Positions 4,431 to 42,407 are shown, numbered from the stretch's first letter. The stretch is DNA of 64,000 bases from a virus (IMGVR_UViG_3300034065_000151:64001-128000); one strand, 5' to 3'. The notes: generated from the letters alone by a model not told the origin. Program-made: numbers and translations.

Positions 4431-5669
4431 TTAAACGAATGAAAGATTGGCAACACTTATGCGACCATAATAATCTGCCGAATTGCCTAAAGATGTGCTA
4501 GTTGAGGTAAATGTTGCTTTACCATATCTAGTCATCAATGAAACATGTGGATTGAATGTGTTAGGATCAACAACAACACCACTTGACATGATAGGGATAT
4601 ATGGGCAGTAGAAATAACCTGTATCCATTTCACCTGAACCGCCTTTGAAACCCATAAGGATTGGTTCTGTACCTTGATCAAAGTAGATATAGCTGTAAAC
4701 CTTGATACCACCATTTAATGTACCAACTAATTTGGTGTTGTTTGGACCATCGAATGAACCAGAAACAGCTGGAGCAAATACTGATTTAGATGCTGACTGC
4801 AATACTGATACAACAAGTGGTGAAACTACAATCCAATTACCTGGACCACGACGGGTTTTACGAGCGATTTCGTTAGCTACTTTGTTGATCAATACACCTA
4901 AAACAGCGTGACGATCACCAACATAGTTTGGAACACCAGTAAATGTACCTGACATATCGAATGATTCTGTAGTACCAGCTAAGGCGATAAGATCATTGAT
5001 AATTTCATTGTCGATTTCTGAAACAACAGCTGCTGAAAGTGATGCAGTGATTTCAGCTTCAAGGTCAAGACCGTGAGATGCTTTGATATCTTGCATTGCT
5101 TCAGGAGTCCAACGTGCTTGTAACTTACGTGAACCGGCTGTAACAGTTTGTTTTAATACTTCAAGAGTTAATGCACGACCACCGAATGCTTCATAGTCAG
5201 ATGTATTAGCTGCAATACCTGTTGAGGTACCTGCTGCTGGTCCACCTGCTGCTGCTGGAGCATCAGAAGTTGAGTAGAAACGCTTCATTTTTGAGTTGTT
5301 ACCGAATACTTCATCACCTGGGTTGATGTCTTCAGCTGTACCAGTATCGATAGTGCCTGGAAGGGCAGTAGTGGTTACGGCTTCTGAGAACAAGAAACGA
5401 AGTGAGTATACCAAACCAACAGGACCGGCCATAGGCTGAACACCAACAAGTTCAGTAGCGATGGTACCTGGGATGATACGTCGAATCATCGGGATAACGA
5501 TTTTCTGGAAGTTACCGATTGCGCCAGCTGATGAAGTTCCAGCAGGTGAGGTTTCTTGCAAATGTTGCATTTGATTATCTAGGACTGGTCCCAAGATACG
5601 TTTTTTACTTTCACTAAGACCATCGAGAAGGGTCTCTTTGGTTTCGTTCCAATTTTCATATAGTTCCAT
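4431..5669 (-). CDS. gp23: Major capsid protein (T4 gp23-like)
   Basis: IPMIRRIIP...GVQPMAGPVGLVYSLRF, RKLQARWTPEAMQD, FYCPYIP...MTRYG motifs. Start re-set to ATG 5669 (AGGAG RBS). Confidence 0.97.
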   Translation of the reverse strand: MELYENWNETKETLLDGLSESKKRILGPVLDNQMQHLQETSPAGTSSAGAIGNFQKIVIPMIRRIIPGTIATELVGVQPMAGPVGLVYSLRFLFSEAVTTTALPGTIDTGTAEDINPGDEVFGNNSKMKRFYSTSDAPAAAGGPAAGTSTGIAANTSDYEAFGGRALTLEVLKQTVTAGSRKLQARWTPEAMQDIKASHGLDLEAEITASLSAAVVSEIDNEIINDLIALAGTTESFDMSGTFTGVPNYVGDRHAVLGVLINKVANEIARKTRRGPGNWIVVSPLVVSVLQSASKSVFAPAVSGSFDGPNNTKLVGTLNGGIKVYSYIYFDQGTEPILMGFKGGSGEMDTGYFYCPYIPIMSSGVVVDPNTFNPHVSLMTRYGKATFTSTSTSLGNSADYYGRISVANLSFV

Positions 5670-5685
5670 TGAATTCTCCTGTGGA

Positions 5686-6558
5686 CTAGTTACTTGAAAT
5701 GCCCGCAAGCTTTCTTAATTCAGAATGCTTATCGCTTGAGGCTACTTTTGCTGGCTCTGTACTGTTAGGCACGTCACCGGTTACTACAACTGACTCGATG
5801 ATTTGAGCAGGCTTGTTATCTGTATTATCTTCACGGAGAACACGGGCGATAAAATGACCGTATGCTTCTTCAAGGCGGGAAGTTTCAACATTGGCTAATA
5901 CGAATGCCATTTGTTCTTTTTTCTTACCATTGAGTGATGAAAGAATTTTTTCCATCTTTGCTTCACGAACCATCTTAGACTGGGCTTCTTCAAGCTGTCC
6001 GATAGCTTTTTCTGCATCACTTAACTTAGCGAGTGTAGCGGATAATTTAGATTGAACTGAATTCTCGTCGACATAAGATGTAGCGAAGGTTGTTGCGTAT
6101 GCTTCAAAAATCTTACGACCGAATTCGTTTTGTTTAACGATTTCTAAATCTTCATGAAGTTCAGCCATTTCTTCGGTAAGACGGAGCTCAAAGAAAGCAT
6201 CCATTTTGTCGATTAATTGGTCAAGTTCTTCTGAAAGAGTATCAGCCATTGCGTGTTTTTCTTCTACAATCTTTTCTGCATATTCTGCTTCAAGATCACG
6301 GAAACGCTCAATGTCTGCTTTGAGTTCTGCAACTTCTTCATCTAATTTCTTTGCAACGAAAGCTTCAACATTTTCAATCAATGTATCACGTTCATTCGCC
6401 CACTGTTCAGCAATCTCAGCTCGCACTGTCATGGTAACTTCTTCACGAACAACAGATTTATATTGTTCTACTGATTCAGTCCATTGAGTGGAGATTTCCG
6501 CTTTTGCATCTTCGCTTAATAGCTCTGAGCTTAGCAACTTCTGAAGGATTTCATCCAT
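5686..6558 (-). CDS. gp22: Prohead core scaffold protein (T4 gp22-like)
   Basis: Acidic coiled coil, FGRKIFEAY motif, directly upstream of the major capsid gene. Confidence 0.85.
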   Translation of the reverse strand: MDEILQKLLSSELLSEDAKAEISTQWTESVEQYKSVVREEVTMTVRAEIAEQWANERDTLIENVEAFVAKKLDEEVAELKADIERFRDLEAEYAEKIVEEKHAMADTLSEELDQLIDKMDAFFELRLTEEMAELHEDLEIVKQNEFGRKIFEAYATTFATSYVDENSVQSKLSATLAKLSDAEKAIGQLEEAQSKMVREAKMEKILSSLNGKKKEQMAFVLANVETSRLEEAYGHFIARVLREDNTDNKPAQIIESVVVTGDVPNSTEPAKVASSDKHSELRKLAGISSN

Positions 6559-11939: not shown

Positions 11940-11968
11940 TATTTATAAAACCCCAGAAGGGGTTTTAT
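11940..11968 (-). promoter_or_regulatory. Terminator hairpin immediately followed by late promoter TATAAATA (11940-11947) for the portal gene
   Basis: aaaacccc-agaa-ggggtttt plus tatttata. Confidence 0.7.
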
Positions 11969-18656: not shown

Positions 18657-18919
18657 TATGCATGACCAAGAACAGCTTCAATACCATCACGCTTCATACG
18701 ACGGTATACAGCTTTAGGACATTTTGGATCAAGAGTGACCGAATTGTGAATTTCAATTTGTGGCTGCATTTCTTTATGACCTTTGGCAGTTTTACCTTCT
18801 TTCATAACAGTCACTTTATGCTGGACATAACCGTAACGGGTATAAGCACCTTCAAGCACACCAGTTTTAACTAATTGGCGAACGATAATACGTAATGCTT
18901 TGGCTTTCTTTTGATTCAT
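18656..18919 (-). CDS. Hypothetical basic protein
   Basis: ORF track; coupled overlaps on both sides. Confidence 0.6.
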   Translation of the reverse strand: MNQKKAKALRIIVRQLVKTGVLEGAYTRYGYVQHKVTVMKEGKTAKGHKEMQPQIEIHNSVTLDPKCPKAVYRRMKRDGIEAVLGHA

Positions 18920-19092
18920 TTTATTTCCTTGGTTGAATTGAGAACTTCTACAAAATTGATTGCTGCTTGTTTTACATCTTCTTCATATGCTCGTTGGGAT
19001 TTTACTGCTGGAACCAAATCACTAACAATTTCCTGAATTTTTTCTTCAGGCAAATTACCAACATCCACATAAAAAATTCTTCGATTACTCAT
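18916..19092 (-). CDS. 58-aa protein beginning with a portal clip-domain motif
   Basis: Below the ORF-track cutoff. MSNRRIFYVDVGNLPEEKIQEIV...; AAGGA RBS; ATGA overlap with the next gene. Confidence 0.75.
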   Translation of the reverse strand: MSNRRIFYVDVGNLPEEKIQEIVSDLVPAVKSQRAYEEDVKQAAINFVEVLNSTKEIK

Positions 19093-19101
19093 CTTATTTC
19101 C

Positions 19102-19398
19102 TTAATAATTTAAAATACTATTGGTATTAAAGTACATATTATACAACTCAACTAATACATCACCATGACAAGCATCAGGTTTACACCAACAGCCTAATGT
19201 TAAACCTTTTAATTCTGGTAGAGAATTAAATAATTCAGGAGTATCTAAAATATATTGTCTATACTTTTCGATAACTTCTTTACGAGTTCCATGAACTCCT
19301 ATTATAAATGGATTTCCCCATTTACTTGGTCTCGTAATTATAAAATCGTAGTTGTCCCTTTTGCAGTGGACAACATTAATCTTCTTGTTTTTCTTCAT
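19102..19398 (-). CDS. DUF4326-like protein
   Basis: VVHCK...RPSKWGNPF...LGCWCKP.ACHGDVL. Confidence 0.85.
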   Translation of the reverse strand: MKKNKKINVVHCKRDNYDFIITRPSKWGNPFIIGVHGTRKEVIEKYRQYILDTPELFNSLPELKGLTLGCWCKPDACHGDVLVELYNMYFNTNSILNY

Positions 19399-19801
19399 GT
19401 TTTAAATGGGCACGGTCAATAGCTTCAGCCGCCGCTTGAGGTACATCATTTGGAATCTCTACATAAGCACCAAGTACATATGCACGACCACCTTCAGCCC
19501 ACTCGGGATTTACAATTTGTTTAGGTCCACCCAACCACGAGAATGCATGTGCATTCATGTTGTTATTTGTGGTGACAAACCAATTAATATCACCGAGGTC
19601 ATCACGACCTCGTTTGATAGTTTTTAGAATTTGATATGCTTCTTTTGAAACACCAAGATGTTTTCCCGTATTCATAATAACTTGACCAATACGAGTAGGA
19701 CCATCAAGTGAAGTTGCTACTTCATTTTCAATTGATTTTGTTGCTATTAGGTCTATAATTAAAGAACCTTTATAAGCAGTAATAGTTGCATGAATTGTCA
19801 T
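19376..19801 (-). CDS. Hypothetical protein
   Basis: ORF track; fits the operon. Confidence 0.6.
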   Translation of the reverse strand: MTIHATITAYKGSLIIDLIATKSIENEVATSLDGPTRIGQVIMNTGKHLGVSKEAYQILKTIKRGRDDLGDINWFVTTNNNMNAHAFSWLGGPKQIVNPEWAEGGRAYVLGAYVEIPNDVPQAAAEAIDRAHLKHEEKQED

Positions 19802-19804
19802 CTT

Positions 19805-20020
19805 TTAATCCTCAGTAAATTCAACAATAGTTTTCCAAGTAATAGGACCACAGCCTTCATATTGGCCCTCAAACTTAGTACCTTCTTTACATACATCAAA
19901 TCGCCATGCTTCATCTTCTTGACCTTCAGTAGCAATCTTACTACGGAAAGCATAAAGACCTGCTTTAGTTACTGTGAATTGACCAATTTCAGATTCACAA
20001 ATCATTGTTAGTTTTGACAT
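19805..20020 (-). CDS. Hypothetical protein
   Basis: ORF track; first gene after the promoter at 20056. Confidence 0.55.
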   Translation of the reverse strand: MSKLTMICESEIGQFTVTKAGLYAFRSKIATEGQEDEAWRFDVCKEGTKFEGQYEGCGPITWKTIVEFTED

Positions 20021-20055
20021 AATTATGTCCCAATAAATTAATATTTCGAACTTTA

Positions 20056-20064
20056 ATTATAACA
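20056..20064 (-). promoter_or_regulatory. Host-sigma70-type extended -10 promoter (TGTTATAAT)
   Basis: Perfect TGnTATAAT, intergenic, oriented with the downstream genes. Confidence 0.6.
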
Positions 20065-20072
20065 CAAAATTG

Positions 20073-20681
20073 TCATAAAATACCAGAATATCTTGGATTT
20101 TTATCACTATCAACATGTTCAATAAGATAACCATTATTTTGTTTGAACAACAATACTTCCCATTTAGAAACACTTGCTGTTCCTAGCTTACCAAGCTTCG
20201 GCCGTAATATAATAAACTTAACTTGTTCCGGTGGAATCATTAGGTTTTCAATATATACTGAATCTGACGCATGTGCAAAATCAATTTTATATAATTTCTT
20301 AGGACTACCATTAGGTATCTGTGTTATTTCAAAGGTACCACTCGGAAATTGTGCAGAGTGATGTGTACTTGGGTTTGGATGAATTAATGCTTTTCTACCT
20401 TTTGTATCAGTAACAAATTTAACTAAGCAATCAATGAAAGCCGTTCGTGCTCTATAACTTATATTTGGGTTTTCCTTACCAAGGGCTGTTTTAATTGTTT
20501 CTTTATCAGGTGGGATGAACATCATCCCTGCTTGTTTGGAAATCCATGGGCCAAGATAATTACTTGCCCGCTGATACATTTCATAGTATCCGGTAATTAT
20601 TTTAAGTAAGTCAGAAAAGTCTGAAGTGTTTCGAGAGATATCATGTTTTGCATTCCATCTATTTTTATTGTCTGTATCCAT
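20073..20681 (-). CDS. Hypothetical protein
   Basis: ORF track. Confidence 0.6.
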   Translation of the reverse strand: MDTDNKNRWNAKHDISRNTSDFSDLLKIITGYYEMYQRASNYLGPWISKQAGMMFIPPDKETIKTALGKENPNISYRARTAFIDCLVKFVTDTKGRKALIHPNPSTHHSAQFPSGTFEITQIPNGSPKKLYKIDFAHASDSVYIENLMIPPEQVKFIILRPKLGKLGTASVSKWEVLLFKQNNGYLIEHVDSDKNPRYSGIL

Positions 20682-20710
20682 TATATCATAAGGTTGGGGT
20701 TGGGGGATTA

Positions 20711-21361
20711 CTATTCATCATTTGAATAGTCATGAGGAGTGCACCAAAAGGTTGGGCACTTTAATAGGTCATCGAAATAATGTACCTGGAGAGTTTGTTC
20801 ACAACAACCATCTGATTCAAGATCATAAGTTGTAAGTTCAAATCGTGGAAGAGGAGTCTCTTGCTTTAGATCAGTATAAGCAGTATGACTTTTCTTAACA
20901 ATAACAAATACGGGAGTACGATTCCATTTGAAAATCAACATTGGAAATTTACTTGTTTTTAAAGCATCAACTTCAGATTCTTTAAACCATTTAAAAATGT
21001 TTGCAGTATTTGCAGCAAGAGAAGTAAAACTATCTGAGTCAGCATAACTCTTACATTCAATAGAATGTAAGAAAGTTAAACCGGCTTTTTTTTCATTGAT
21101 TGGTACAACGTCAGCGGTGAATATCTTCATAGCTTCAGCACCAAACATATCACCAAACTTTTCAAAGTTCTTACCACCAACTCGTGCACCAGAACCTGGA
21201 CTACGAATGAAATTCAATGGTGCTAATGCAGCTGATAGCTTTTTAGCAACTTGTCCTTCAAATGAGTTACCTTTGGCTTTACCGCCACCGGGTCTCATTT
21301 TACGTTTTTTAGGGGAAACTGAATCCATGTCAGCATCGCTAATGGTAGATTTTTTAGTCAT
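20711..21361 (-). CDS. Holliday-junction-resolvase-like PD-(D/E)XK nuclease
   Basis: KAKGNSFE..VAK.L, R.PGSGA, D.V, IECK. TATAAATA at 21397-21404. Confidence 0.8.
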   Translation of the reverse strand: MTKKSTISDADMDSVSPKKRKMRPGGGKAKGNSFEGQVAKKLSAALAPLNFIRSPGSGARVGGKNFEKFGDMFGAEAMKIFTADVVPINEKKAGLTFLHSIECKSYADSDSFTSLAANTANIFKWFKESEVDALKTSKFPMLIFKWNRTPVFVIVKKSHTAYTDLKQETPLPRFELTTYDLESDGCCEQTLQVHYFDDLLKCPTFWCTPHDYSNDE

Positions 21362-21404
21362 ATTTTATAGGGAGTAGTTAAAAAGGAATTACCTTTTATT
21401 TATA

Positions 21405-21749
21405 CTATTCCGGGTCCCATACTTTAAACCATGATGTTAAGGGCTTAGTATGATATAAAACAGTTCGTGAAAGGATGACCAATCTGAGTTGACATTTGCC
21501 CTTTTTGACCTCAAATGTCTTATGACAAACATATTTCTGTTTAACTTTAAATGGGAAATTGATGCAAATATACCAACCATTAAGGAATTCTGATTTATAC
21601 TTATCTAACTGGATATTGTCACCATACACAATAAATGCATCTTTACTGAAAGGTTTTCCTTCTAGTCTATCTTGTTCTAATATTAATTTCATGGGTTGGA
21701 TAAGGTATAGATACACAAGTTTCTGGCCTGTGTAAGTCGGGTTAAACAT
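21405..21749 (-). CDS. Hypothetical protein (likely start MKLILEQ at 21692)
   Basis: ORF track; ATGA overlap with the upstream gene. Confidence 0.5.
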   Translation of the reverse strand: MFNPTYTGQKLVYLYLIQPMKLILEQDRLEGKPFSKDAFIVYGDNIQLDKYKSEFLNGWYICINFPFKVKQKYVCHKTFEVKKGKCQLRLVILSRTVLYHTKPLTSWFKVWDPE

Positions 21750-21949
21750 TCAAATAATATGCCAGGAGTAACTAAATTGCCACTAGTCATATGACAAAGC
21801 TGTAAAATAGATGATTCAATTTCATTAATTGTTTTCTGATCAGGAATCACCGCTTTAAAATGAGTCTCAATAAAATATATTGGATCATGTATTAAACTAG
21901 CTTGTTGAGATAGGGTTAACTTTGGTGGTGGTATATTATTGTATGTCAT
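21689..21949 (-). CDS. Small protein resembling the N-terminus of T4-like large terminase
   Basis: LT.SQ.....DPIYFIETHFKAVIPD vs the recalled TerL pattern FT.EQ..E..KC..DPIYFIENY.KI..PD. Confidence 0.6.
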   Translation of the reverse strand: MTYNNIPPPKLTLSQQASLIHDPIYFIETHFKAVIPDQKTINEIESSILQLCHMTSGNLVTPGILFECLTRLTQARNLCIYTLSNP

Positions 21950-22347
21950 TCAGCATCATCTTCCGGGATAACATTAACACCAAGCAAATTGATATCAGTA
22001 ATTTCTTTTGTACCATTATCTCGCATGTGTACATTACCTGTAGAATAAGAGCGATAAGAAACTGGAACATGACCATTTATTAAGGTTTCTAATATATGTC
22101 CCTGATGTGTATCAGCAACTTTAATTGTACCAATCATGTTACCTCCTTCTAGTTTCAAATCAGAAACAGTAAAGGCTACATCTTTTTGATCTATAGTACA
22201 ACCAATTGAACAACCAATAATTCCAGGCAATGGCTGGTTCTTAGCCTTCCATTCATCAATCGCTTTTTGTAAAGCTTCTGATGAGTAACAATTGCCATTC
22301 CGTGTTGGTACATCAGCTTTTAATATATCAACCTTAAATTCTTCCAT
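21946..22347 (-). CDS. Degenerate prohead-protease paralog (catalytic motifs eroded)
   Basis: Aligns along its length with 9511-10125: NGNCYS/NKRKYP, PGIIGC/PGELNH, IDQKDVAF/VDLKNVSH, DTHQGHILETLI/NTPSGLIVQQLI, SYRSYSTGNV/GVSSRGTGNV. Confidence 0.75.
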   Translation of the reverse strand: MEEFKVDILKADVPTRNGNCYSSEALQKAIDEWKAKNQPLPGIIGCSIGCTIDQKDVAFTVSDLKLEGGNMIGTIKVADTHQGHILETLINGHVPVSYRSYSTGNVHMRDNGTKEITDINLLGVNVIPEDDAE

Positions 22348-22348
22348 C

Positions 22349-24319
22349 TCAGTCTCCTAAAATTCGGGAAAAGCCCGATTCCTTTCTAACTACGACCGTT
22401 TTATCAAATCGGCCGACAGCCTCAGGACGATGTGAAATAATCCACATACTCAAATTATCTTCCCGAGTCTTACCCTTCAACAACTTAAATATGTTATTAA
22501 CACCTAATGAATCCAAACCACCATCAATCTCATCAACAAACAAACAGTTCACATGAGAATGTAAATGATGCAATACATCCCTAAATGATAATGACAATGA
22601 AAGATTAACACGTTTCTTTTCACCACTGGAAAGGTTACCGAAATCCAATTCACGACCATACTGTACCACAGTACAGCTCATATCATCATCAAACTTAATA
22701 ACATGAGGTAAACCCAATTCTCTGGTGTAATAAAATAAACGCTTATTCAAGAATGGAATTGTACGGCTAATAATTGTACGACGGATAAATGAATTCTTAT
22801 CAGTTAACAGTTTCAATAGGAATTGCTGATGTTCTATCAGTTTCTTCAATCTATCAAGTTCTGTATAATCAACTATATTTATAGGACTTTTCAACAGTTC
22901 TTCATGGGCTTCAATATGAGGATTAACAAGAACTGGTTGGTTTTTAAGCTGTTCAAGCACCTCAATATATGGATTAACTGGAATAGGCTGATTTTTAAGT
23001 TGTTCAAATACCTCAGTATATGGATTACTTGAATCCTTTAACTCTTTTATTTTGTTTTCAGCAATAACAGCATTAGATTCAGCTTTAAGAACTTCTTCAA
23101 GACTGCCAAATTTCATTACTTCTAATGCTGATTTCTTATCATTCAATAATGTTGCTAGTTCTGCATTTCTAATATTAATTTCATGAATCCATGTATTAAC
23201 ACTTGTTTCTTTATCATGAATAGATTCTTTTAATCCACTTATTTTCTTAGCAGCACCTTCAAATTTCTGTAAACAGTATGGACACTTTTCATCTACTAAA
23301 TGCGATAATTCTTTAGTCAGTTTTTTAATATCTGTTTCTAAAATCAAATTATCTTTTTTTAATCCATTAATCTCATTAGTGAGTCTGGTTTCTTCTGTTT
23401 TAATTCCATTAACTAATACATGAAGTTCCTTTTCTACTTCACTATCAAATGTGGAAATTAAATCATAATCTTTTTGCAATTTAACAAGTTGGGATTGTTT
23501 TTCAGTATCCCATTTGGTGATACGATCTTCTGCTTCCTTAAGCTGTTTAACCGTTTGTTTTTCTGTATCAGTATCCCATTTTTCAATACGATCTTTTGCT
23601 TCTTGAAGCTGATTAGCATATTGATTTACTGTATCATTATCCCATTTAGTAACACGCTCCTCGGCATTTTTAACTTGCTTCTGGAATAAAGCTGATTGAG
23701 ATTCCTGCTCTTTGATAACAGCTTCTTGAATAGCCGCATTACTTTCAGTTGCTTTGATAATAGCTTTCAACTTGATTGCCTTCTCAGACAACAAAGTGAT
23801 ATTAAACAATTCTTCAATCTGTGCACGTTGTTGAGCAACTGGCATCAACAAGAATGGGGTTGAGTCACCGGAGAATACAATGATCTTAGTAAACAGTTCA
23901 TAACTGATACCAATAACTTCAAGGATTAACTTATTGGTTTCTGCAGCACTTGCACAAGTAATATCTTCACCATTCTTAGTGAATGTGATTTCAGTTGATT
24001 CACCACGACTGCGATATATCTCATATGTGTCAATACCCTTATCAAAGAATAAGCGTACTTCCAACATGGTTTTCTTCAGATTATTGGTTGCATTAATCAA
24101 TCGCTGAAGCGATATCTGGCTTAATGGTTTATCATAAACCGCATAGACCAATGTATTAAGAATGGTGGTTTTACCGGAACCATTAGCACCATCATTATCA
24201 AGATTCTCGCCTTGAAGATGGGTAGTACCAGGATCACTTAAATCGATGACTGTGGTTTGATTACCAAAGGATAATACATTGCGGATATGTAGTTCTTTAA
24301 AACGAATTGGAATACTCAT
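22349..24319 (-). CDS. gp46: Rad50/SbcC-like recombination ATPase (T4 gp46-like)
   Basis: Walker A NGSGKTT, CPYC zinc hook, LSSGEK signature, LFVDE Walker B, ISH. Confidence 0.95.
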   Translation of the reverse strand: MSIPIRFKELHIRNVLSFGNQTTVIDLSDPGTTHLQGENLDNDGANGSGKTTILNTLVYAVYDKPLSQISLQRLINATNNLKKTMLEVRLFFDKGIDTYEIYRSRGESTEITFTKNGEDITCASAAETNKLILEVIGISYELFTKIIVFSGDSTPFLLMPVAQQRAQIEELFNITLLSEKAIKLKAIIKATESNAAIQEAVIKEQESQSALFQKQVKNAEERVTKWDNDTVNQYANQLQEAKDRIEKWDTDTEKQTVKQLKEAEDRITKWDTEKQSQLVKLQKDYDLISTFDSEVEKELHVLVNGIKTEETRLTNEINGLKKDNLILETDIKKLTKELSHLVDEKCPYCLQKFEGAAKKISGLKESIHDKETSVNTWIHEINIRNAELATLLNDKKSALEVMKFGSLEEVLKAESNAVIAENKIKELKDSSNPYTEVFEQLKNQPIPVNPYIEVLEQLKNQPVLVNPHIEAHEELLKSPINIVDYTELDRLKKLIEHQQFLLKLLTDKNSFIRRTIISRTIPFLNKRLFYYTRELGLPHVIKFDDDMSCTVVQYGRELDFGNLSSGEKKRVNLSLSLSFRDVLHHLHSHVNCLFVDEIDGGLDSLGVNNIFKLLKGKTREDNLSMWIISHRPEAVGRFDKTVVVRKESGFSRILGD

Positions 24320-24810
24320 AGGAAATAGATTAACTTTGCATTAGTACGGCTGAAATTTATACAGGGAATGAGTGTTTCACGCATCTCATCAAAGGCTTGT
24401 GGACTGAATTGTTTTGAAATAATAAGGTGGTCAACTGTTTTACCACGACCACCATGGGGACGGCTTATTAGAAAAATACGATTACCATTTTCAAATTCAA
24501 TTACATCCTTAGTAAATCTTTTAATTGGGATTCGATATAATTCGGGAATGCTATAAAAAATATCCCTTAACTGATATAAGATATAATCTTTTAAATTGGC
24601 ATTAGAAGAAGGAGTGGCAATGATAACATTTTTATTACTTTGATATAAACAAACCCATAAAGTAAACAACAAAACATCATCAACATCAGCACCATCTATC
24701 AGCTTATCTTCAAAGGTATTACTAAGATCCCTTCCACCATACATAGTTGAAAAGACTTCAAACTTTGTATGACTTTGTAGTTCAATAATTTGTTGTAAAG
24801 TATAGGTCAT
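24316..24810 (-). CDS. Degenerate large-terminase ATPase-like domain
   Basis: LW..LY..NKNVIIA...L..I...IP....IEFENGNRI....GRGKTVDHLII...LIPCI follows TerL ATPase order; Walker A and the Walker B DE are absent. Confidence 0.7.
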   Translation of the reverse strand: MTYTLQQIIELQSHTKFEVFSTMYGGRDLSNTFEDKLIDGADVDDVLLFTLWVCLYQSNKNVIIATPSSNANLKDYILYQLRDIFYSIPELYRIPIKRFTKDVIEFENGNRIFLISRPHGGRGKTVDHLIISKQFSPQAFDEMRETLIPCINFSRTNAKLIYFL

Positions 24811-25178
24811 GTGAAATATATTGCCCTTCCATTTTTTGGATCCATTGTTAACAAAAGCAATGCCAACTGATTCTTGTATCGTTCTAACTCATCAATAATA
24901 CCCATTGAACAAGCAATCACATTATGCTTTACATTAGCAAATGAATGCATGGTATTGATACCAACAAAACTGAAATTGCATTTGTTGTATAACTCGATAT
25001 TAGCAATTGGATGTGGGTTGTATTGAAAGGGAATACTATTCATGGTTGTTAAGATACCAGATAGTTCAACCGCTTTATCATAAGCAACTATACCCTCTTT
25101 ATAGATGACAAGATACTTTTCATCTGGACTGTTTTGACCAATCCGAATCATTTTATCAAAGAGATAGATTTCTTTCAT
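24807..25178 (-). CDS. Hypothetical protein, probably a second, more divergent terminase-ATPase-like paralog
   Basis: PDEKYLVI...SIP...IELYNKCNF...HNVIAC...AIYFT parallels 24316-24810 (...LIYFL). Confidence 0.45.
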   Translation of the reverse strand: MKEIYLFDKMIRIGQNSPDEKYLVIYKEGIVAYDKAVELSGILTTMNSIPFQYNPHPIANIELYNKCNFSFVGINTMHSFANVKHNVIACSMGIIDELERYKNQLALLLLTMDPKNGRAIYFT

Positions 25179-26215
25179 AGTGTTTCATAGATTTCTACAA
25201 GAATATCAGGTTCGATAGTTACAGTACGAGTTACACCAGTTTTTAACATAGTAATGACTGCATCATTTAATAAACTTAAATCAAGATCATCAATGGTTTC
25301 ATCACCATTAATTGAGTTCTTTTTCTCTTCAGAATTTTCTTCCAGTGAGAACTCACGGAATGTACCAGCCTTCAGCATTTCATCCTTAAAGGACTGGGCA
25401 TCTGAATAGCTAATATCTGTGTCAATAATACATTGTACCCGACATTTAGGTGGGAATGTTAAGGTTGGATCATTCAACACATCTGAAAGTTTTACCTTAC
25501 GGAATGTTGGACAGCCTTCCCAATTAATAAAATCCACATCTTCTGTTCTGGTATCTAATATTGACATACCACGATTTTCATCCCAAGCATCACCGAAGTT
25601 AGTTGGAAAGGTATTACCAATATAGATTACATTATCATTAGCTTGACGTTTGTGATAGTGACCAGAGAAGATATAAGTTGGGCCTTTAAAGACTTTATGA
25701 TCTGGACCATGTTCCATCATTCTATCGGAACCGGTTACTACAAAGTTCTTGAATTCAAAGTGACCGAATACATATTTAGGCTTATGCTTTTTAATAATAG
25801 CTGCAGCATTACCATATTCTGCATCAAATAAGTATGGGAAGAATATACACTTTTCATTATCAATGTGGTCATTAAGTGGTTCGTCCACTAATCGAACATT
25901 TAAGAATTGAGTGTAATGATAAGTAGAGAATTGGTACCGGTCATTGCGATGATAAAGATCATGATTACCAACCAGAAAATAGATTGGTAAGCCGAGTTTA
26001 TTTAATTTATCTAAGGCATCATAGGAAGCATTTAATGTAGCTACATTAATTGCATTCCTATTTTCAAACCAGTCACCCATGAAAACAATAGTATCACATT
26101 TATTCTTCTTGACCTGAGACATAAACCAGTCTACATATTCCGTGCAGTCTTGGTTATGTTGATCACTATTATTACGACATCCCCAATGGATGTCGGTAAA
26201 CATTGCTATTTTCAT
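25175..26215 (-). CDS. gp47: Mre11/SbcD-like nuclease (T4 gp47-like)
   Basis: DIHWG, GDWF, GNHD, GHFE, SGHYH metallophosphoesterase motifs. Confidence 0.95.
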   Translation of the reverse strand: MKIAMFTDIHWGCRNNSDQHNQDCTEYVDWFMSQVKKNKCDTIVFMGDWFENRNAINVATLNASYDALDKLNKLGLPIYFLVGNHDLYHRNDRYQFSTYHYTQFLNVRLVDEPLNDHIDNEKCIFFPYLFDAEYGNAAAIIKKHKPKYVFGHFEFKNFVVTGSDRMMEHGPDHKVFKGPTYIFSGHYHKRQANDNVIYIGNTFPTNFGDAWDENRGMSILDTRTEDVDFINWEGCPTFRKVKLSDVLNDPTLTFPPKCRVQCIIDTDISYSDAQSFKDEMLKAGTFREFSLEENSEEKKNSINGDETIDDLDLSLLNDAVITMLKTGVTRTVTIEPDILVEIYETL

Positions 26216-26217
26216 TA

Positions 26218-26439
26218 TTAACCTTGAACTTTATTCATTGTCCATTTACCATCACGGAAATCACCACGAGGATCATATTGACCTTCGGTACCAAATCCAT
26301 CATTATTACCATGGATATCATTAATCATGAATTCTAAATCCTGTGCAAATTCTTTTGCAAAGTTATTATCTTCATTGGATAATTTAATAAGACGAGTCAA
26401 TACTAATTCAATATTTTTTTGAATTTTTGTTTGCTTCAT
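26218..26439 (-). CDS. Hypothetical protein
   Basis: ORF track; TAATG coupling with gp55. Confidence 0.6.
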   Translation of the reverse strand: MKQTKIQKNIELVLTRLIKLSNEDNNFAKEFAQDLEFMINDIHGNNDGFGTEGQYDPRGDFRDGKWTMNKVQG

Positions 26440-27380
26440 TACTTTTCCTTTTTGGCTTTTGGCATTTTCAAAATTTTAAGTTCTTTAACAACTTTAGGAG
26501 CTTTGACAGGTTTCTCTTTTTTAACTTTAGGAACCTTTAGCTTTACTACTTTTTCTTTCTTAACCTTAACAGGTTTCTCCACTGCAACTTCACCTTCGGG
26601 CTTTGGTTTACGCTGGAACATAATCCGTTTAGGAGGTGGAGCTTTAACTGGTAATGCGGCGACTTCATCAACCTTACCAACAGCACCTTCTCGGATTGAA
26701 ATAGCACCAGTTTCTGGGTCTATAATTATATCTTCTGCTTTGTATGTGGTAATAGAGCTTGGTGATTTCCCCCGATTCCGTACTCGATCTTCAAATGGAG
26801 TAACTGGACATTGTGTTGGTGCTTTAGGAACATCGACAAGAACACCATCAACTAAGACTTTCTGTTGAAGTAGTTCTTCATCTTCGGCTTCTAAAAGGAA
26901 CTGATTATATACTTCTACATGCTCATCTGATTCTTTAATTTCAAAATGAGATTCATCTTTTTCACCTTGTAAGAAATTGTATGATGGATTTGATCCAGCA
27001 TCAATTAATAACATATCTCTAATATTTCGGTGTTTTTTCTCATCAGCAATACATTGTAAGAACGTATTGTGAATAGCAGATGTGTAGTATGAGAAGGGAT
27101 TTGGTTTATCACTTCTATCAAGATCAAAGTTTAAAGCGTTTTTACATAGATTTTCAACTGCAGTCGAAACCATATCAGCTCTAAAGGTATAATTTACAAA
27201 GTTACCTTTACGTGAATAGCGCTCTGCAATCATCCATATCATGGCGATAAGTTCACTTGTCACTTCATTCAGTTCTTTGGCTTTGATAACTTCTGGTAAT
27301 AATACACCATTCGTTACGTAATGCCCAACTTCACTTGTGGATTTCTCTCTTTTTACTCGTTTTGCTTTAGTTTGAATCAA
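26439..27380 (-). CDS. gp55: Late-transcription sigma factor (T4 gp55-like) with Lys-rich C-terminal extension
   Basis: HYVTN, IA..YS.K.NF.NYTFR.DMV, NPFSYYT; adjacent to gp47/gp46 as in T4. Confidence 0.9.
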   Translation of the reverse strand: MIQTKAKRVKREKSTSEVGHYVTNGVLLPEVIKAKELNEVTSELIAMIWMIAERYSRKGNFVNYTFRADMVSTAVENLCKNALNFDLDRSDKPNPFSYYTSAIHNTFLQCIADEKKHRNIRDMLLIDAGSNPSYNFLQGEKDESHFEIKESDEHVEVYNQFLLEAEDEELLQQKVLVDGVLVDVPKAPTQCPVTPFEDRVRNRGKSPSSITTYKAEDIIIDPETGAISIREGAVGKVDEVAALPVKAPPPKRIMFQRKPKPEGEVAVEKPVKVKKEKVVKLKVPKVKKEKPVKAPKVVKELKILKMPKAKKEK

Positions 27381-27425: not shown

Positions 27426-27434
27426 ATTATAACA
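27426..27434 (-). promoter_or_regulatory. Extended -10 promoter (TGTTATAAT) for the gp55-gp47-gp46 operon
   Basis: Perfect TGnTATAAT in the divergent intergenic region. Confidence 0.65.
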
Positions 27435-37100: not shown

Positions 37101-38112
37101 CAATTCCCTTGAATTACTTCCTACTGATACCAGTACATTCACCCTTGCCGGTAACGGTTCTCCTGATAATATCCTTCAGTTCGAAAACTTTGCCCAGAAC
37201 TCCTACCAGTTCACTGTCATCAATGTTACCGATCCTACTAATCCTATCATCGATAATGTCCTTAACTGCTCAGACTATACCTATATCTCTGGCTATGATA
37301 TGACACAATATGATATCAATGGCTATGACTCAGGCGTCATCTCAGTCACTGGATTCTCACAACCATTCAACTTCATCCCCGGCTCTTTCATGTCATCCAA
37401 TACAGTCAATGGATTCCAAATCGCCAGACAACTCTACGTACCAGCTCCTGCTGTTGTCAGTCCTACTACTAACCAATACAGCTGTAATATCACTACTGGT
37501 CTTGATTTCATGTGGCAACATTACACTCCGGACTCTAACCTTATTGACCCATCACCAAGTAATATCCATGATGCCTTCTTGTTAACATCTGGCTATTATA
37601 CATCGGTAATGGATTATGTGAATGGATTTACTACTGTAGCTCCACAGCCACCTACTCCTCTCGATCTATTAACTTCTTATGGTTACCTTCTCGAGAATAA
37701 GATGTTGTCTGATACACTTGTCCTTCATTCAGGTAAGATTAAACTTCTATTCGGTTCCCTTGCTGATCAAACCCTTCGTGCTAAATTCAGTGTTATCATG
37801 GCACCTACTGCTACCTTCTCATCAGAACGTATCAAACAAGAAGTTATTAATACCATCAACACCTATTTCACAATACAATCATGGGACTTCGGCCAATCCT
37901 TCTATGCTACCGAACTATTGTCTCTTATTCACCAAGCCTTACCTACACAGATTTCATCAGTAGTTATTGTGCCCACCTATAGCGTTAACTCATTCGGCTC
38001 TCTATTCACTATCAATGCAGGCTTCGATGAAGTCCTTCAATCCTGCACCCAAGTAACAGATGTGGAGATTGTTGCTGCTTTAACACCATCAGTTATTAGA
38101 CAGGTTGTTTAA
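34156..38112 (+). CDS. gp6: Baseplate wedge protein (gp6-like) with a large central insertion
   Basis: DYD..K..L..YL, ENFI.TA....S..RLAKL.SY, FGDG, ETIE.VR..AP..Y..QDRMV...DY. Confidence 0.9.
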   Translation: MTIINKYAAESWDKVYTAFTQINFTSFDYDTVKESLIQYLQIYYAESYNDMIESSELIAILEMFAYAAELITYRVDIASHENFITTAQRKQSILRLAKLISYSASRNIPARGLVKLNTVRTDQTVYDSLGNNLANVTITWNDPSNSNWKEQFFLVMNLSLTTTFGQPSKSFQVADVLMQQYTFNNNLAAFNNGVFAFNASTTTQSVQMEAVPIDIDANGPFERSPDLNAQFNIVYASDGRGDGSDYTGFLLFVKQGSLLQTNYVIPEPTANRRIELDAININNTDVWLYGVDNTGTITENWLPVNTLNDQTLAFNNNTTTRKQYSIDTLENDRIAINFGDGNFSDAPVGAYQIWTRVSANQDITVQKQQIVNQKMSFTYLDNTNVSHVFNMTFSLTSSLQNNSASETIEHVRQSAPSTYYAQDRMVNGQDYNTYMLKDSTILKLNTINRTFAGQPKYIEWNDASGAYQNIKLFGDDLTMNLSTSVDMVLTTTSSQSIIDSYIEPLLQTNALLNTLTHQIASAADSYGIISYPRRVFIEDNQKVYFDINGNPVNPYGRQLPSPAQIAANAASPAPLPLSQIGTPLHTGDGSLLEKTVIQGALDNHWYGSPTSTVTINGTISGVIPDPVADPSSDSNIYAPNMPRTIDGVNLYPPGDTGSGFQNINLQQYFGLKYNRFLQAFGTGDIALYNVNDFVLLTPPQLPPTQNWGYGDGAPNSITNSNGTLDSSHNPVPCPCNGLNAYNYKMEVLTIEMTSDSTTFAITSNIRGTLPSYSLTKAASVTNPQPRWSQQSPTAVPCDFIISNGTTQYKAGDAFVINITFQNGQWGSVVRSFGTNNAHKANLSGWWELIPETVINGSTAEGGLNLFTQGASDGPNSVQAMTFDQGSAGSSWIFLVASTLSTSGTVASWSIYNRDMKIIASSPTTKFWFNTASQILDPQTLKPLYDKIRILRSNLDELGMPLKQADIYDCVNFVYDINGEVITNSLELLPTDTSTFTLAGNGSPDNILQFENFAQNSYQFTVINVTDPTNPIIDNVLNCSDYTYISGYDMTQYDINGYDSGVISVTGFSQPFNFIPGSFMSSNTVNGFQIARQLYVPAPAVVSPTTNQYSCNITTGLDFMWQHYTPDSNLIDPSPSNIHDAFLLTSGYYTSVMDYVNGFTTVAPQPPTPLDLLTSYGYLLENKMLSDTLVLHSGKIKLLFGSLADQTLRAKFSVIMAPTATFSSERIKQEVINTINTYFTIQSWDFGQSFYATELLSLIHQALPTQISSVVIVPTYSVNSFGSLFTINAGFDEVLQSCTQVTDVEIVAALTPSVIRQVV

Positions 38113-38459
38113 TGAACCTATATCAATTCCATACAATACCTGAGTCACTCCATAAACATGCAGTTGCTCAGGAAACTGTACCTGAACTCGTCTGGAAGAA
38201 ATATAAAAATGATCCCGAAGAACTAAAGAAATATGAAAACGTTCTCGCTAAATCCCCACAATATGCCTGCCAATATGCTATTGATATTCTCGGTAAAGCT
38301 TTCCCTAAAGGTGAACCTGCTATCATGAAAGATGCCTGGTATGCAGCCTGGTATGCCATGGATATTAAAGATAAACGATGGAAAGCCGCCGAACCAACCA
38401 TCTTCGACGACGAAGAAGCTGCTAAAGACTATATCCGCTACTTTGGAATCAATCGATGA
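38112..38459 (+). CDS. Helical-repeat family protein (2 repeats)
   Basis: MNLYQFH head plus ~25-aa YA..YA..IL...FP.GE.AI repeats. Confidence 0.8.
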   Translation: MNLYQFHTIPESLHKHAVAQETVPELVWKKYKNDPEELKKYENVLAKSPQYACQYAIDILGKAFPKGEPAIMKDAWYAAWYAMDIKDKRWKAAEPTIFDDEEAAKDYIRYFGINR

Positions 38460-38983
38460 ACCTCTACCAATTCCACGATCACCCTGAATCTATCCATAGC
38501 CACGATAAAGCAGATACTCATGTAGTAGATGTCTTCTGGAACAAATATAAAAATAACCCTAAAGAACTAAAAACTAGAAAACATGCTATTACTAAATCTT
38601 CTAAATACTCTTTCTATTATGCCAGCGATATACTAAAAGGTAGATTCCCATTAGGTGAACCCGCCATCGCCACTGATCCCTATCAAGCTAAAGACTATGC
38701 CACCACAATACTTAAAGGTAGATTCAAACTAGCCGAACCCACTATCGCTAAAAATAGCTATGCTTCTTATATCTATGCACTAAAGGTTCTCAAAGGTCCA
38801 TTCAAATTAGGTGAACCTGCCATTCTTAAAGACCCAGAAGATGCATTACTATATGCTAAAAACGTTCTAAAGAAACCATGGCCTAAAGCTGAACCCATCA
38901 TTGCATCCAATATCTGGACAACCATAGAATATAATACATCCTTTAATCAACACCTAGCATATACACGTACCTATAAAATATAA
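38456..38983 (+). CDS. Helical-repeat family protein (4 repeats)
   Basis: Same head and repeat unit. Confidence 0.8.
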   Translation: MNLYQFHDHPESIHSHDKADTHVVDVFWNKYKNNPKELKTRKHAITKSSKYSFYYASDILKGRFPLGEPAIATDPYQAKDYATTILKGRFKLAEPTIAKNSYASYIYALKVLKGPFKLGEPAILKDPEDALLYAKNVLKKPWPKAEPIIASNIWTTIEYNTSFNQHLAYTRTYKI

Positions 38984-39090
38984 ACTACTCATGGATAAAA
39001 CTATTTTAAGTAATTGAGTGTTAACCAATAGTAATTTGTAGTAGGTTTTAGAAAAGTTAGTTTGTCCCTTTGAATCGAACGGAATCGAGA

Positions 39091-39546
39091 ATGAATCTTT
39101 ACCAGCTCCACTCAGCACCAACCAGCATATATGGACATGACAAAGCGCATGAGACAGTACCTGAACTTATCTGGAAGAAGTATGAAGGTAACCCTGACCA
39201 AGATGAGCAGCTCAAGAGGTATGAGGACATCCTTGCAAAGGATCCTGGGTATGCTTACAAGTATGCATTCCTGATTCTTAAGAAACCCTTTCCTAAGGGT
39301 GAGAAGGCGATTGCAACCAGTCCTGAATATGCTTTTAACTATGCTCTACATGTCCTTAAAGGACCATTTAAAGCAGGAGAACCAGCTATATCCAAGGATG
39401 CTTATTATGCAGTATGGTATGCTGTGGACGTCTTAAAGAAGCGGTTTCCTATGGCAGAAGACTTGATATATGATGATTATGACCTAGCCATTGAGTACAA
39501 TAGTATGTTACATAAGCATGATATAAAGATCCCACATCGACCATAA
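39091..39546 (+). CDS. Helical-repeat family protein (3 repeats)
   Basis: Start re-set to MNLYQLH. Confidence 0.8.
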   Translation: MNLYQLHSAPTSIYGHDKAHETVPELIWKKYEGNPDQDEQLKRYEDILAKDPGYAYKYAFLILKKPFPKGEKAIATSPEYAFNYALHVLKGPFKAGEPAISKDAYYAVWYAVDVLKKRFPMAEDLIYDDYDLAIEYNSMLHKHDIKIPHRP

Positions 39547-39653
39547 GTAAACCTTTTATTATATCACATGATAAGTAATAAGTGTAGTAAGTGTAGTAAA
39601 TATAGGAACTGTTGGATGATAATATCCTAAGTGAAACCTTCTATTATAACATA
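39547..39653 (-). promoter_or_regulatory. Two orphan leftward extended -10 promoter-like motifs flanking a short TAAGTGTAG tandem repeat; candidate origin element
   Basis: Minus strand TGTGATATAATAAAAGGTTTAC (39547-39568) and TATGTTATAATAGAAGGTTTCAC (39631-39653); third copy at 41722-41743. Confidence 0.5.
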
Positions 39654-39670
39654 AAAATTGGAACTGATGT

Positions 39671-40039
39671 ATGAAAGTTGCAGAATTATTTGAGGCCCGG
39701 ATTAAGTATAAGCGTCCAGATTTCCAGGAAGAATGGAATGAGGCGCAACGTTATCCTGAACTTAAGAAGCTTGGTAAACAAGGATGGATTAAGTTAGTTA
39801 ATGATGGACAGATTGTTAATAGTAAGACCTTATTAAATATAGGTAATATTGATTTAGATTTATCTGGTTTGGATAAGGCGAAGTTAGCCAGAGCTGAAGC
39901 GAGTATTAATAAGGGTGAGGTAGAGTTACCTATAGTGGTTAAGATTAATGGTAAGTATGATTTGCTTGGTGGTAATACCCGCTTTGCATATATGAAATCA
40001 AAGGGTATCAATCCTATAGTATGGTTAATTAAGATATGA
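39671..40039 (+). CDS. ParB/Srx-like domain protein with capsid-targeting-like N-terminus
   Basis: LPIVV....YDLLGGNTR motif; MKVAELFEAR start. Confidence 0.7.
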   Translation: MKVAELFEARIKYKRPDFQEEWNEAQRYPELKKLGKQGWIKLVNDGQIVNSKTLLNIGNIDLDLSGLDKAKLARAEASINKGEVELPIVVKINGKYDLLGGNTRFAYMKSKGINPIVWLIKI

Positions 40040-40527
40040 ATTTATATAAGCTACATGACAAACCTGAGAGTATCCATGGACATGATAAGATGGATACCCA
40101 TGTCATCGATGCATTCTGGGATAAGTACAAAGATAATCCTGCTGAATTAAAGAAGCGTGAGAAAGCAATTGCTAAACATACAGAGTATGCACATCATTAT
40201 GCCAATATATTAAAGGGACCATTCCCAGCTGGAGAAGATGCTATTGCTAAAGATGCATTTAGTTCTTTATATTATGCTGGGAGTATATTGAAGGGACGGT
40301 TTCCTAAGGGAGAGAAGGAAATAGCAAAGTATCCAGGATATGCTTATAGGTATGCTGAGTATGTATTGAAAGGGCCTTTCAAATTAGGTGAGGATGCGAT
40401 ATCAAAGAATCCTGAGTATGCTTTTAAGTATGCTTATTATATATTAAAGAAGAAATGGTCTAAAGGAGAGGATGCGATTAATAAGGATCCATACTTTAAG
40501 GAAAGATATGCAAGGGAATTTAAATGA
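40036..40527 (+). CDS. Helical-repeat family protein (4 repeats)
   Basis: Same head and repeat unit. Confidence 0.8.
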   Translation: MNLYKLHDKPESIHGHDKMDTHVIDAFWDKYKDNPAELKKREKAIAKHTEYAHHYANILKGPFPAGEDAIAKDAFSSLYYAGSILKGRFPKGEKEIAKYPGYAYRYAEYVLKGPFKLGEDAISKNPEYAFKYAYYILKKKWSKGEDAINKDPYFKERYAREFK

Positions 40528-41099
40528 ATCTATATGATATGCATCATGATCCTAAGAGTATCCATAAACATGATGAAGCCGATATGACAATACCTAAAGT
40601 GTTTTGGGATAGGTATAATCATATGCCATCTGAATTAGAGAAACGTGAAGCAGCCCTCGCAAAGAGTCCTGAGTATGCTTACTATTATGCCAGGGAAGTA
40701 TTAGATAAACGTTTCCCTAAAGGAGAAGCTGCCATTGCGACAAGTCCTAAGTATGCATATTATGCGTATTATGTGATAGATGGAAGGTTTCCTGTGGGAG
40801 AACCTGCTATAGCAAAGGATATAAAATACAGTGTGAATTATGCTATCCATGTAATACATGAGGAGTTTCCATTAGGGGAAGATATTATAGCGACTGATGT
40901 AGAGTATTCATATGAGTATGCATATGGATTGGGTAAAGTATTTAAGAAGGGTGAAGCTAAGATAGCAACAAATGCCGAGTATAGTTGTCTTTATGCTCTG
41001 TGGGTATTAGGAAAGAGATTCCCATTAGGAGAACCTGTGATAGCCAAAGATCTTCATTATAAACATGAATACAATAAACAGTTTGGAACTAACCTATGA
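40524..41099 (+). CDS. Helical-repeat family protein (5 repeats)
   Basis: Same head and repeat unit. Confidence 0.8.
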   Translation: MNLYDMHHDPKSIHKHDEADMTIPKVFWDRYNHMPSELEKREAALAKSPEYAYYYAREVLDKRFPKGEAAIATSPKYAYYAYYVIDGRFPVGEPAIAKDIKYSVNYAIHVIHEEFPLGEDIIATDVEYSYEYAYGLGKVFKKGEAKIATNAEYSCLYALWVLGKRFPLGEPVIAKDLHYKHEYNKQFGTNL

Positions 41100-41719
41100 A
41101 CTTTTATAAACTACATGATGAACCGGAAAGCATTCATAAGTACCAGGAAGCTTTAGATAAAGTAGTAGATGTATTCTGGCATAAATATAAAAATGATCCT
41201 GTTAAATTAAAAGAACGGGAACCAGAGATTGCTAAATCGGCAAAGTATAGTTATGCATATGCCTTTGGGGTATTACATAAAAGGTTTCCTGCAGGGGAAG
41301 CAGCTATATCTAAAGTACCACAGACAGCATATAATTATGCCAAGAATATAATACAGGGACCATGGCCAGAAGGAGAAGATGCCATTGGTAAAGAATCATA
41401 CTTTGCTTACTATTATGTAGAAGAATACCTTAGGAAGAAGTTCCCTAAGGGAGAAGCTGCGATCGCAAAGGATCCATATTATGCTGCTGAGTATGCAAGG
41501 ATAACAGGACAACCTTTTAAGGCAGGTGAGAAGGCAATTGCTACTAACAATTATGCATCGTATATCTATGCGAGGGATGTATTGAAGAAGCCATGGAAGC
41601 CTGGAGAGGCAGCTATCTTGAATGATAAGGATGGTACCGAATACAGTGAGAACTATATGAAGTTTTGTAATGAATGGTATGCTAACCAGAAGAAAAACAA
41701 AGGATCTAAAGATGAATGA
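41096..41719 (+). CDS. Helical-repeat family protein (5 repeats)
   Basis: Same head and repeat unit. Confidence 0.8.
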   Translation: MNFYKLHDEPESIHKYQEALDKVVDVFWHKYKNDPVKLKEREPEIAKSAKYSYAYAFGVLHKRFPAGEAAISKVPQTAYNYAKNIIQGPWPEGEDAIGKESYFAYYYVEEYLRKKFPKGEAAIAKDPYYAAEYARITGQPFKAGEKAIATNNYASYIYARDVLKKPWKPGEAAILNDKDGTEYSENYMKFCNEWYANQKKNKGSKDE

Positions 41720-41969
41720 AAGTAAACCTATTATTATAACACATTGTGCAGATGATGTATATGATAAATTTTGGCGTAAGCAGAAACCAAACACCAGGGT
41801 ATGTATTGATTCCTATGAGAATGAGATAGCAAAGATACCAGGACATGCTTGTGCTTATGCTAAGTATGTATTGGGTGGAAGGTTTCATAAGGGAGAGAAT
41901 GCTATCTATAGTGATTTGCATACTTCTGCTATCTATATACATTTCTTGGAGTCCTTGAATGATCAGTAA
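41712..41969 (+). CDS. Divergent helical-repeat family protein (1 repeat, head replaced)
   Basis: YAKYVLGGRFHKGENAI repeat; the MNLY head is missing. Confidence 0.55.
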   Translation: MNESKPIIITHCADDVYDKFWRKQKPNTRVCIDSYENEIAKIPGHACAYAKYVLGGRFHKGENAIYSDLHTSAIYIHFLESLNDQ

Positions 41970-42053
41970 AGTCACTGCCGATAAGATTAGATATAGCTTC
42001 CTTATATTCTGGACCATATACCTAATTGCTAATGCTATCAAATGGATGGTATC

Positions 42054-42407
42054 ATGAACCTTTATACATTACATGATCATCCTGAAAGTATCCATGGACA
42101 TGATAAAAAGGATTCACGAGTACCTGAACTCATTTGGGCCAAATATAAAAAAGATCCTGCTAGTATGAAAAAATATGAATCAGTACTCGCAAAGGATTCT
42201 CATTATGCTTACCTCTATGCCGCCAATATCCTCAGACATAAATGGTTAAAGGGAGAACCTGCGATAGCTAAAGATGCAACATGTTCCTGGGAATATGTTA
42301 TGCATGTATTAAAGAAGCCATTTCCTAAAGGAGAGAAGGCTATCCTTGGTAGTTCCTTTGCAGATGCATATAGATTAAACCTAGAAATATATAAAGATAA
42401 AGAATAA
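42054..42407 (+). CDS. Helical-repeat family protein (2 repeats)
   Basis: Start re-set to MNLYTLH. Confidence 0.8.
   Translation: MNLYTLHDHPESIHGHDKKDSRVPELIWAKYKKDPASMKKYESVLAKDSHYAYLYAANILRHKWLKGEPAIAKDATCSWEYVMHVLKKPFPKGEKAILGSSFADAYRLNLEIYKDKE

Follow-up and report, generated by a model that had tools for sequence, protein, structure and literature searches.

A 64,000-nucleotide stretch of DNA from an uncultured, T4-like jumbo phage (bases 64001–128000 of the 140.8-kb IMG/VR record IMGVR_UViG_3300034065_000151, CheckV completeness 40%; hereafter the window) contains a single, tightly packed minus-strand run of genes in which several small open reading frames (ORFs) resemble parts of the phage head-packaging machine. 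Five such ORFs had been flagged by an earlier reading of this DNA (the original prediction). We found that four of them, together with a capsid-protein piece elsewhere in the record, are indeed dead or truncated look-alikes of head proteins set amid non-structural genes: a 58-amino-acid (aa) portal-clip miniprotein, a core of the gp21-type prohead protease, a core of the large terminase (TerL) ATPase that we call terA, and a protein, terB, whose predicted fold recalls the TerL N-terminal domain. These proteins are probably real, retained, non-catalytic mimics, and the observations behind this conclusion are homology, loss of catalytic residues, a pattern of truncation, purifying selection and a patchy distribution among relatives. 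All five flagged ORFs are present where they had been placed, closely packed on the minus strand, with 4-nucleotide start/stop overlaps at 25175–25178, 24807–24810, 24316–24319, 21946–21949 and 18916–18919 (Table 1).

The protease copy (133 aa) is a gp21-type core without the N-terminal ~40 and C-terminal ~45 residues. It matched phrog_207 (E-value 5e-11) and the phage's own protease (E-value 2e-8), and scored 25.4 bits against Pfam S77 (PF03420), just below the cut-off of 27. We located the catalytic columns from the His/Ser/Asp triad of T4 gp21 (PMC5694885). All three residues are replaced: the columns read Cys/Arg/Asn, both in the window phage and in L007, a 101-kb metagenome contig with the same gene order. 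The copy is thus a gp21 protease fold with eroded catalytic motifs, as had been proposed. By position it also departs from a genuine enzyme: its gene follows gp46 and does not stand in the late head module beside the portal. A 130-aa dead paralog encoded by the 368-kb relative G002 has the same N- and C-terminal truncations, lies at another position and reads Val/Arg/Thr in the same columns. Because the truncations and the Ser-to-Arg change are common to the window phage, L007 and G002, sequence comparison points to one old duplication as the putative source of their dead proteases. The best database match of the protease copy was a 297-aa protein of a 595-kb uncultured phage (LR756511.1; L120:2878–3771), in which Met takes the place of the catalytic His and a further domain is fused at the C-terminus.

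Small protease paralogs are already known from phiKZ-like phages, namely SPN3US gp117, 201phi2-1 gp206 (145 aa) and PhiPA3 gp143 (136 aa) (PMC5694885). As in those phages, we find a second, short (~130–145 aa) and strongly diverged copy of the phage's own prohead protease that lacks the prohead-targeting C-terminal part and is encoded away from the head module. The phiKZ-like paralogs, however, belong to the S80 branch, and gp117 still aligns Ser and Asp (PMC5694885), whereas the copy described here derives from a T4-type S77 enzyme and has kept none of the three catalytic residues. A sequence search with the protease copy gave no match to SPN3US. Just before the window, ~15 unrelated proteins (genome C1 41941–63898, minus strand) share a 10-residue leader ending in Glu, which resembles the T4 capsid-targeting sequences cleaved by gp21. 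The dead protease might read or grip this shared leader.

terA (164 aa) corresponds to residues 33–191 of the phage's own TerL. When aligned by hhalign with a profile of 52 TerL sequences, it gave a probability of 98.3% and an E-value of 1e-14. terA matched 282 phage records, and among the matches listed 25 of 25 lay in the TerL gene, two of them annotated 'hypothetical protein' and two in records without annotation. Other residues stand in for the P-loop and for the acids of Walker B; a Gly-Arg-Gly-Lys-Thr string aligns to the Gly-Arg-Gly ahead of Walker B, and L007 has Leu in place of its Lys. terA is therefore what had been suspected, a TerL ATPase-like domain, of the Terminase_6N kind (PF03237), that has lost both Walker A and Walker B. 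Searched against PDB sequences, neither terA nor the protease copy gave anything significant, and a word-index protein search returned one close relative only for each. AlphaFold2 models of the two proteins, built from two-row alignments, were poor, with predicted local distance difference test (pLDDT) scores of 47.5 for terA and 54.7 for the protease copy. Their top Foldseek matches (T4 gp17 for terA and T4 gp21, 5JBL, for the protease copy) agree with the sequence evidence and are weak alone.

terB (123 aa) had been read in the same way, and this reading stands in part. The P-loop is absent, and all 10 of the 10 nearest structural neighbours of its ESM Atlas model were TerL N-domain clusters, with template-modelling (TM) scores of 0.72–0.82. 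Sequence comparison gave no such signal: terB did no better than control ORFs in hhalign against the TerL profile, Pfam and PHROG profiles were silent, and an exhaustive HMMER search among 1.84 billion representatives found nothing beyond one close relative, and no family. Moreover, an Asp-Glu pair is kept at the Walker-B position. Both terA and terB end near the C-motif and are without the portal-binding subdomain and the RNase-H-like nuclease domain; the sole Terminase_6C match was to the real, split TerL. In T4, the gp17 subdomain that contacts the portal spans D325–S344 (PMC4493910). Stand-alone proteins resembling the TerL ATPase domain are already known, as T4 vs.8 and Ksap1/Ksap2, and these activate Avs2 (PMC13601566). 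terA and terB share with them a small, free-standing TerL-ATPase-like form, a place outside the packaging module and an occurrence in some lineages only. However, vs.8 keeps Walker A and Walker B and activates EcAvs2 (PMC13601566), whereas terA and terB have no P-loop, terA is also without the Walker B acids, and both are placed between gp47 and gp46.

The portal piece scored 26.1 bits against Pfam Portal_T4 (PF07230; cut-off 22.9) and matched phrog_213 with an E-value of 2e-7. By tblastn against 50,697 phage genomes it matched 1719 records; in a sample of 40 spread evenly down that ranking, all 40 lay in portal genes and 39 were annotated so. A word-index protein search found a single foreign portal. 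The piece covers positions 205–240 only of the 433 in the Portal_T4 profile, rather than the wing-stem-clip-crown architecture (about 500 aa) of a portal protein. In T4 gp20, the homologous segment (281–316) is contained in the clip domain (279–358), and gp17 is contacted by the clip-tip residues N291, M292, R295 and K296 (PMC4493910). A 24-residue gp20 peptide, 288–311, cited in the same study, binds gp17 and inhibits DNA packaging (PMC4493910). With its score above the Portal_T4 cut-off and its alignment to this segment, the label 'portal clip peptide' given by the original prediction is correct and functionally meaningful. Like the synthetic T4 peptide, the portal piece holds the clip segment as a free polypeptide; it differs in being a natural gene, known here from sequence, and in its contact positions. 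The gene shows an ATGA junction and comes with a ribosome-binding site of its own. Its product is 46–50% identical to foreign T4-like portals, as against 29% to the phage's own portal, and carries an acidic residue at the position of T4 R295. The closeness to foreign clips and the change of charge at this site would fit a target other than the phage's own motor.

Are the pieces maintained by selection? We computed the ratio of nonsynonymous to synonymous substitution rates (dN/dS) pairwise, against L007. terB is strongly constrained (0.063), gp46 and gp47 giving 0.06–0.07 and gp55 about 0.06, and the ratio is 0.24 for terA and 0.20 for the protease copy; these three pieces show clear purifying selection. 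For the portal piece, of which L007 has an intact 58-aa ortholog, the overall dN/dS is 1.05 on 58 codons. All 13 changed codons fall within codons 9–32 and none among the other 34 (P about 6e-5), so that it is only in the gp17-binding segment that the two phages differ in amino acids. The local ratio of nonsynonymous to synonymous differences (pN/pS) in this variable block is 1.46, which is not significant, pS being raised there too. The portal piece is not decaying uniformly.

Among the genomes compared, the full set of five ORFs occurs only in the window phage and L007. Of the relatives whose gp47 is 58–63% identical, G001 and G004 carry only a terA-like gene, which is 159 aa long, P-loop-less and placed in the same gp47–gp46 slot (24% identity to terA, as against 63% for gp47), and G002 carries the dead protease only. 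None of the pieces was found in G003 or in the cultured phage RsoM2USA, and the portal piece was found in none of the five relatives examined. In G002, G003 and RsoM2USA no gene separates gp47 from gp46. Because relatives carry one piece or none, the pieces are independent accessory genes and not a co-inherited system, and the single coordinated "system" initially envisaged falls away. Recent self-duplication was also ruled out, the pieces being only 22–29% identical to the phage's own proteins.

The fifth flagged ORF (86 aa) had been taken for a TerL N-terminus, a third "terminase". We rejected this assignment: the likeness is limited to a 9-residue motif that is not kept in the L007 ortholog, hhalign against the TerL profile gave 4.7%, the same as for control ORFs, and the ESM Atlas neighbours are generic helical bundles. 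The ORF is 41% identical to its L007 ortholog, with a dN/dS of 0.59. An island at 21427–22017, with 56–61% nucleotide identity to L007 against 85–93% in its flanks, covers this ORF, the 3' end of the protease copy and the adjacent 95-aa ORF. An all-against-all search of the record revealed a sixth head-protein piece, a 70-aa ORF that lies outside the window on the minus strand (genome C1 3641–3853; L119:3641–3853). It scored 37.6 bits against Pfam Gp23 (cut-off 24.4) and, over 41 residues, shares 46% identity with the capsid protein of the phage itself. Small ORFs of G001–G003 gave weak, sub-threshold matches to the Gp23 motif.

What is the function of these pieces? We propose that they are separately evolving accessory genes for old, non-catalytic derivatives of head-assembly proteins ("pseudo-subunits"), each of which would retain its parent's fold or binding surface and act by competitive binding. 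Loss of chemistry with retention of fold or surface is the usual signature of binding-type proteins, and patchy presence among relatives is as expected of conflict or accessory genes. The 58-aa ORF is the clearest case, being a stand-alone version of the clip tip of the portal, where terminase docks. It may bind a large terminase and block docking on a portal, and would therefore interfere with packaging. The target may belong to a co-infecting relative or satellite, or may be the phage's own terminase before proheads are ready; candidate partners of the clip piece are a large terminase, for which the T4 peptide is a precedent, and a clip-reading sensor such as SpbK or Avs4. The dead protease and the two P-loop-less TerL cores would bind the partners of their parent enzymes without chemistry. 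Binding, the identity of the targets and timing are what we infer in this scheme, and we regard interference with packaging or assembly only tentatively as the main role of the mimics. A dominant-negative poison or a timer of head assembly had been offered earlier as an alternative; for the portal piece this alternative is supported, since the piece is the counterpart of the gp20 clip segment whose 288–311 peptide binds gp17 and inhibits packaging (PMC4493910).

Several points weigh against action by competitive binding to head proteins. The likeness of terB to TerL comes from one predicted model, and in a 2.2-kb metagenome contig (L011:1108–1456) terB is split into two overlapping frames, through a frameshift or an assembly error. 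Without the portal-touching subdomain, terA and terB cannot compete for the portal itself. With an acidic residue at the R295 site, the portal piece may also bind differently from the T4 peptide. Finally, because pS is also raised in its variable block and pN/pS is not significant, a recombination patch could explain this block as well as selection does.

The pieces could act on host immunity instead, as decoys that occupy sensors for portal, terminase, protease or capsid without activating them; this was the original prediction, and we consider it possible but doubtful. A monovalent clip peptide, for example, could cap a sensor that needs to cluster on the 12-fold portal. SpbK docks on the portal clip, and an escape mutation maps to the clip helix; Avs4 reads the clip as well (PMC12847820). 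That a phage protein can block a sensor by standing in for its structural-protein trigger has a precedent in DSAD1 of SPbeta-like phages, which sits in the tail-tube pocket of DSR2 (PMC10973363), although for DSAD1 overlapping binding surfaces are reported, not tail-tube homology (PMC10973363), whereas the candidates here are trigger homologs or fragments. The pieces cover four head proteins, and sensing is published for portal, terminase and capsid, the protease entering as a trigger of CBASS (cyclic-oligonucleotide-based anti-phage signalling system) from the original prediction only. Fast divergence, patchy distribution and a place in a block that is early or middle in T4 would also suit decoys. 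Yet the known stand-alone TerL-ATPase look-alikes, T4 vs.8 and Ksap1/2, activate Avs2 (PMC13601566). The ATP bound to the terminase is a contact point for Avs2, which contributes a further, bridging ATP, while Avs3 senses residues of the active site; terA and terB have lost these features (PMC13601566). Furthermore, no trigger mimic is among the anti-Avs proteins in the consulted part of the EVADES preprint, which comprise a ligase and a DprA-like protein, and the pieces do not co-occur across relatives.

Two further explanations concern subsets of the pieces. terA and terB might be non-catalytic accessory subunits or regulators of the gp46/gp47 (Rad50/Mre11) nuclease, unrelated to head assembly. 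Consistent with such a role, the gp47–terB–terA–gp46 chain is translationally coupled via 4-nucleotide overlaps, the terA-like gene occupies the same slot in G001 and G004, and terB is as constrained as gp46 and gp47. We nevertheless find it improbable, because the nuclease does not need terA and terB where gp47 and gp46 adjoin directly (G002, G003 and RsoM2USA), and the sequence of terA has changed much more quickly than those of the genes around it (24% identity, as against 63%). In addition, the slot between the conserved gp47 and gp46 genes is occupied by small variable ORFs in T4 too. It is quite improbable, moreover, that part of the set, in particular the 58-aa portal ORF and the 86-aa ORF, consists of leftovers without function from old recombination or homing-endonuclease traffic, their frames staying open by chance. 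Their high dN/dS (1.05 and 0.59), the absence of the portal piece from five relatives and the mobile elements of this genome, where an intein-like insertion bearing an endonuclease-like ORF interrupts the TerL gene, would fit such relics. But the 58-codon frame is kept in both phages, the contrast of 0 changes in 34 codons with 13 in 24 is unlike uniform decay, the portal ORF has its own ribosome-binding site and ATGA junction, and the other three pieces are under clear purifying selection.

When would the pieces be produced? The original prediction had placed them behind host-type TGnTATAAT promoters. Both strings exist (27426 and 20056), but the window holds no excess of the motif (4 found, as against an expected 2.5), and a scan for the sigma-70 consensus came out at chance level, as did the count of TGTTATAAT, for which reason promoter-based timing was dropped. 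Since the motif and the scan carry no signal, we base pre-late timing on gp55/gp47/gp46 synteny alone, and by analogy with the order of these genes in T4 pre-late expression is plausible. The T4-type late-promoter string TATAAATA lies 32 nucleotides upstream of the real portal. A further copy of this string occurs inside gp46, upstream of the protease copy, and the copy before the PDDEXK_15 gene recalls the late promoter of T4 gene 49.

The block begins with a gp55-like sigma factor, followed by a 73-aa ORF, gp47, terB, terA, gp46, the protease copy, the 86-aa ORF, the 95-aa ORF, the TATAAATA string, the PDDEXK endonuclease, a 202-aa ORF, the TGnTATAAT string, small ORFs, the portal piece and an 87-aa ORF onward. 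A 141-aa ORF (19376–19801; window about 19479–19929) is an insertion relative to L007, where a 50-aa ORF stands. By portal, the closest cultured phages are the jumbo myoviruses RsoM2USA (48% identity) and XacN1, and complete genomes of 350–368 kb are among the relatives recovered via TerL. The genuine TerL is encoded outside the window, as a fractured gene at genome C1 38891–41869 (L005, L022): first comes a 294-aa N-terminal ORF, at whose end an intein-like N-terminal start is seen, then a 222-aa endonuclease-like ORF, and lastly a 381-aa ORF that opens with an intein-like C-terminal end (His-Asn, then Cys) ahead of the nuclease domain. This split is common to G001 and G004, and TerL is unsplit (525–559 aa) in G002, G003 and G005. 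A large paralog family of 84–207-aa proteins is present in ~10 copies (window 38112–42407; genome 50699–51570 and 76622–76876).

Table 1. Features of the window, in window coordinates.
Feature	Position	Strand	Remarks
Genuine capsid protein	4431–5708		
Genuine prohead protease, 204 aa	9511–10125	−	His/Ser/Asp triad intact
Genuine portal, 545 aa	10271–11908	−	TATAAATA at 11940–11947
Portal-clip miniprotein, 58 aa	18916–19092	−	residues 3–38 match T4 gp20 281–316
Extended −10-like string	20056–20064	−	upstream of sub-block with portal piece; surrounding stretch 99% identical in L007
PDDEXK_15 endonuclease gene	20711–21361	−	Pfam match
T4-type late-promoter string TATAAATA	21397–21404	−	directly upstream of PDDEXK_15 gene; conserved in L007
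95-aa ORF	21405–21692	−	translationally coupled to 86-aa ORF
86-aa ORF	21689–21949	−	fast-evolving, helical
Prohead-protease core, 133 aa	21946–22347	−	gp21-type, catalytically dead; N-terminal ~40 and C-terminal ~45 residues absent
gp46 (Rad50/SbcC-like)	22349–24319	−	profile matches
terA, TerL ATPase core, 164 aa	24316–24810	−	own TerL residues 33–191; Walker A and Walker B absent
terB, TerL N-domain-like predicted fold, 123 aa	24807–25178	−	P-loop absent; Asp-Glu at Walker-B position
gp47 (Mre11/SbcD-like)	25175–26215	−	profile matches
gp55-like late sigma factor	26439–27380	−	first gene of block; profile match
Extended −10-like string	27426–27434	−	upstream of gp55

Tailed phages are conserved in their portal, terminase, protease and capsid proteins, and it is these that bacterial innate immunity reads. 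New here, as variations on the published protease paralogs and vs.8, are an S77 core that has lost its whole triad, TerL cores without a P-loop and a naturally encoded clip miniprotein, all in a single jumbo T4-like lineage. The correction of the "system" idea by the relatives, which point to independent accessory genes, changes the strategy by which such pieces are to be searched for. The clip miniprotein is an especially tractable case: it has 58 residues, its T4 counterpart peptide binds terminase, and its variable part coincides with the interface. It is conceivable, if rather unlikely, that huge phages carry a changeable arsenal of non-catalytic head-protein pieces (portal clip, terminase ATPase core, protease core, capsid motif) that serve as monovalent competitors, blinding host sensors or jamming the packaging of rivals. 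In that case the clip miniprotein would be nature's own, rapidly evolving form of the synthetic peptide that keeps terminase from docking. With mimics of this kind a phage could evade sensors, combat competitors or set when packaging begins, and dead mini-versions kept by selection offer a direct test of whether viruses mimic their own immune triggers.

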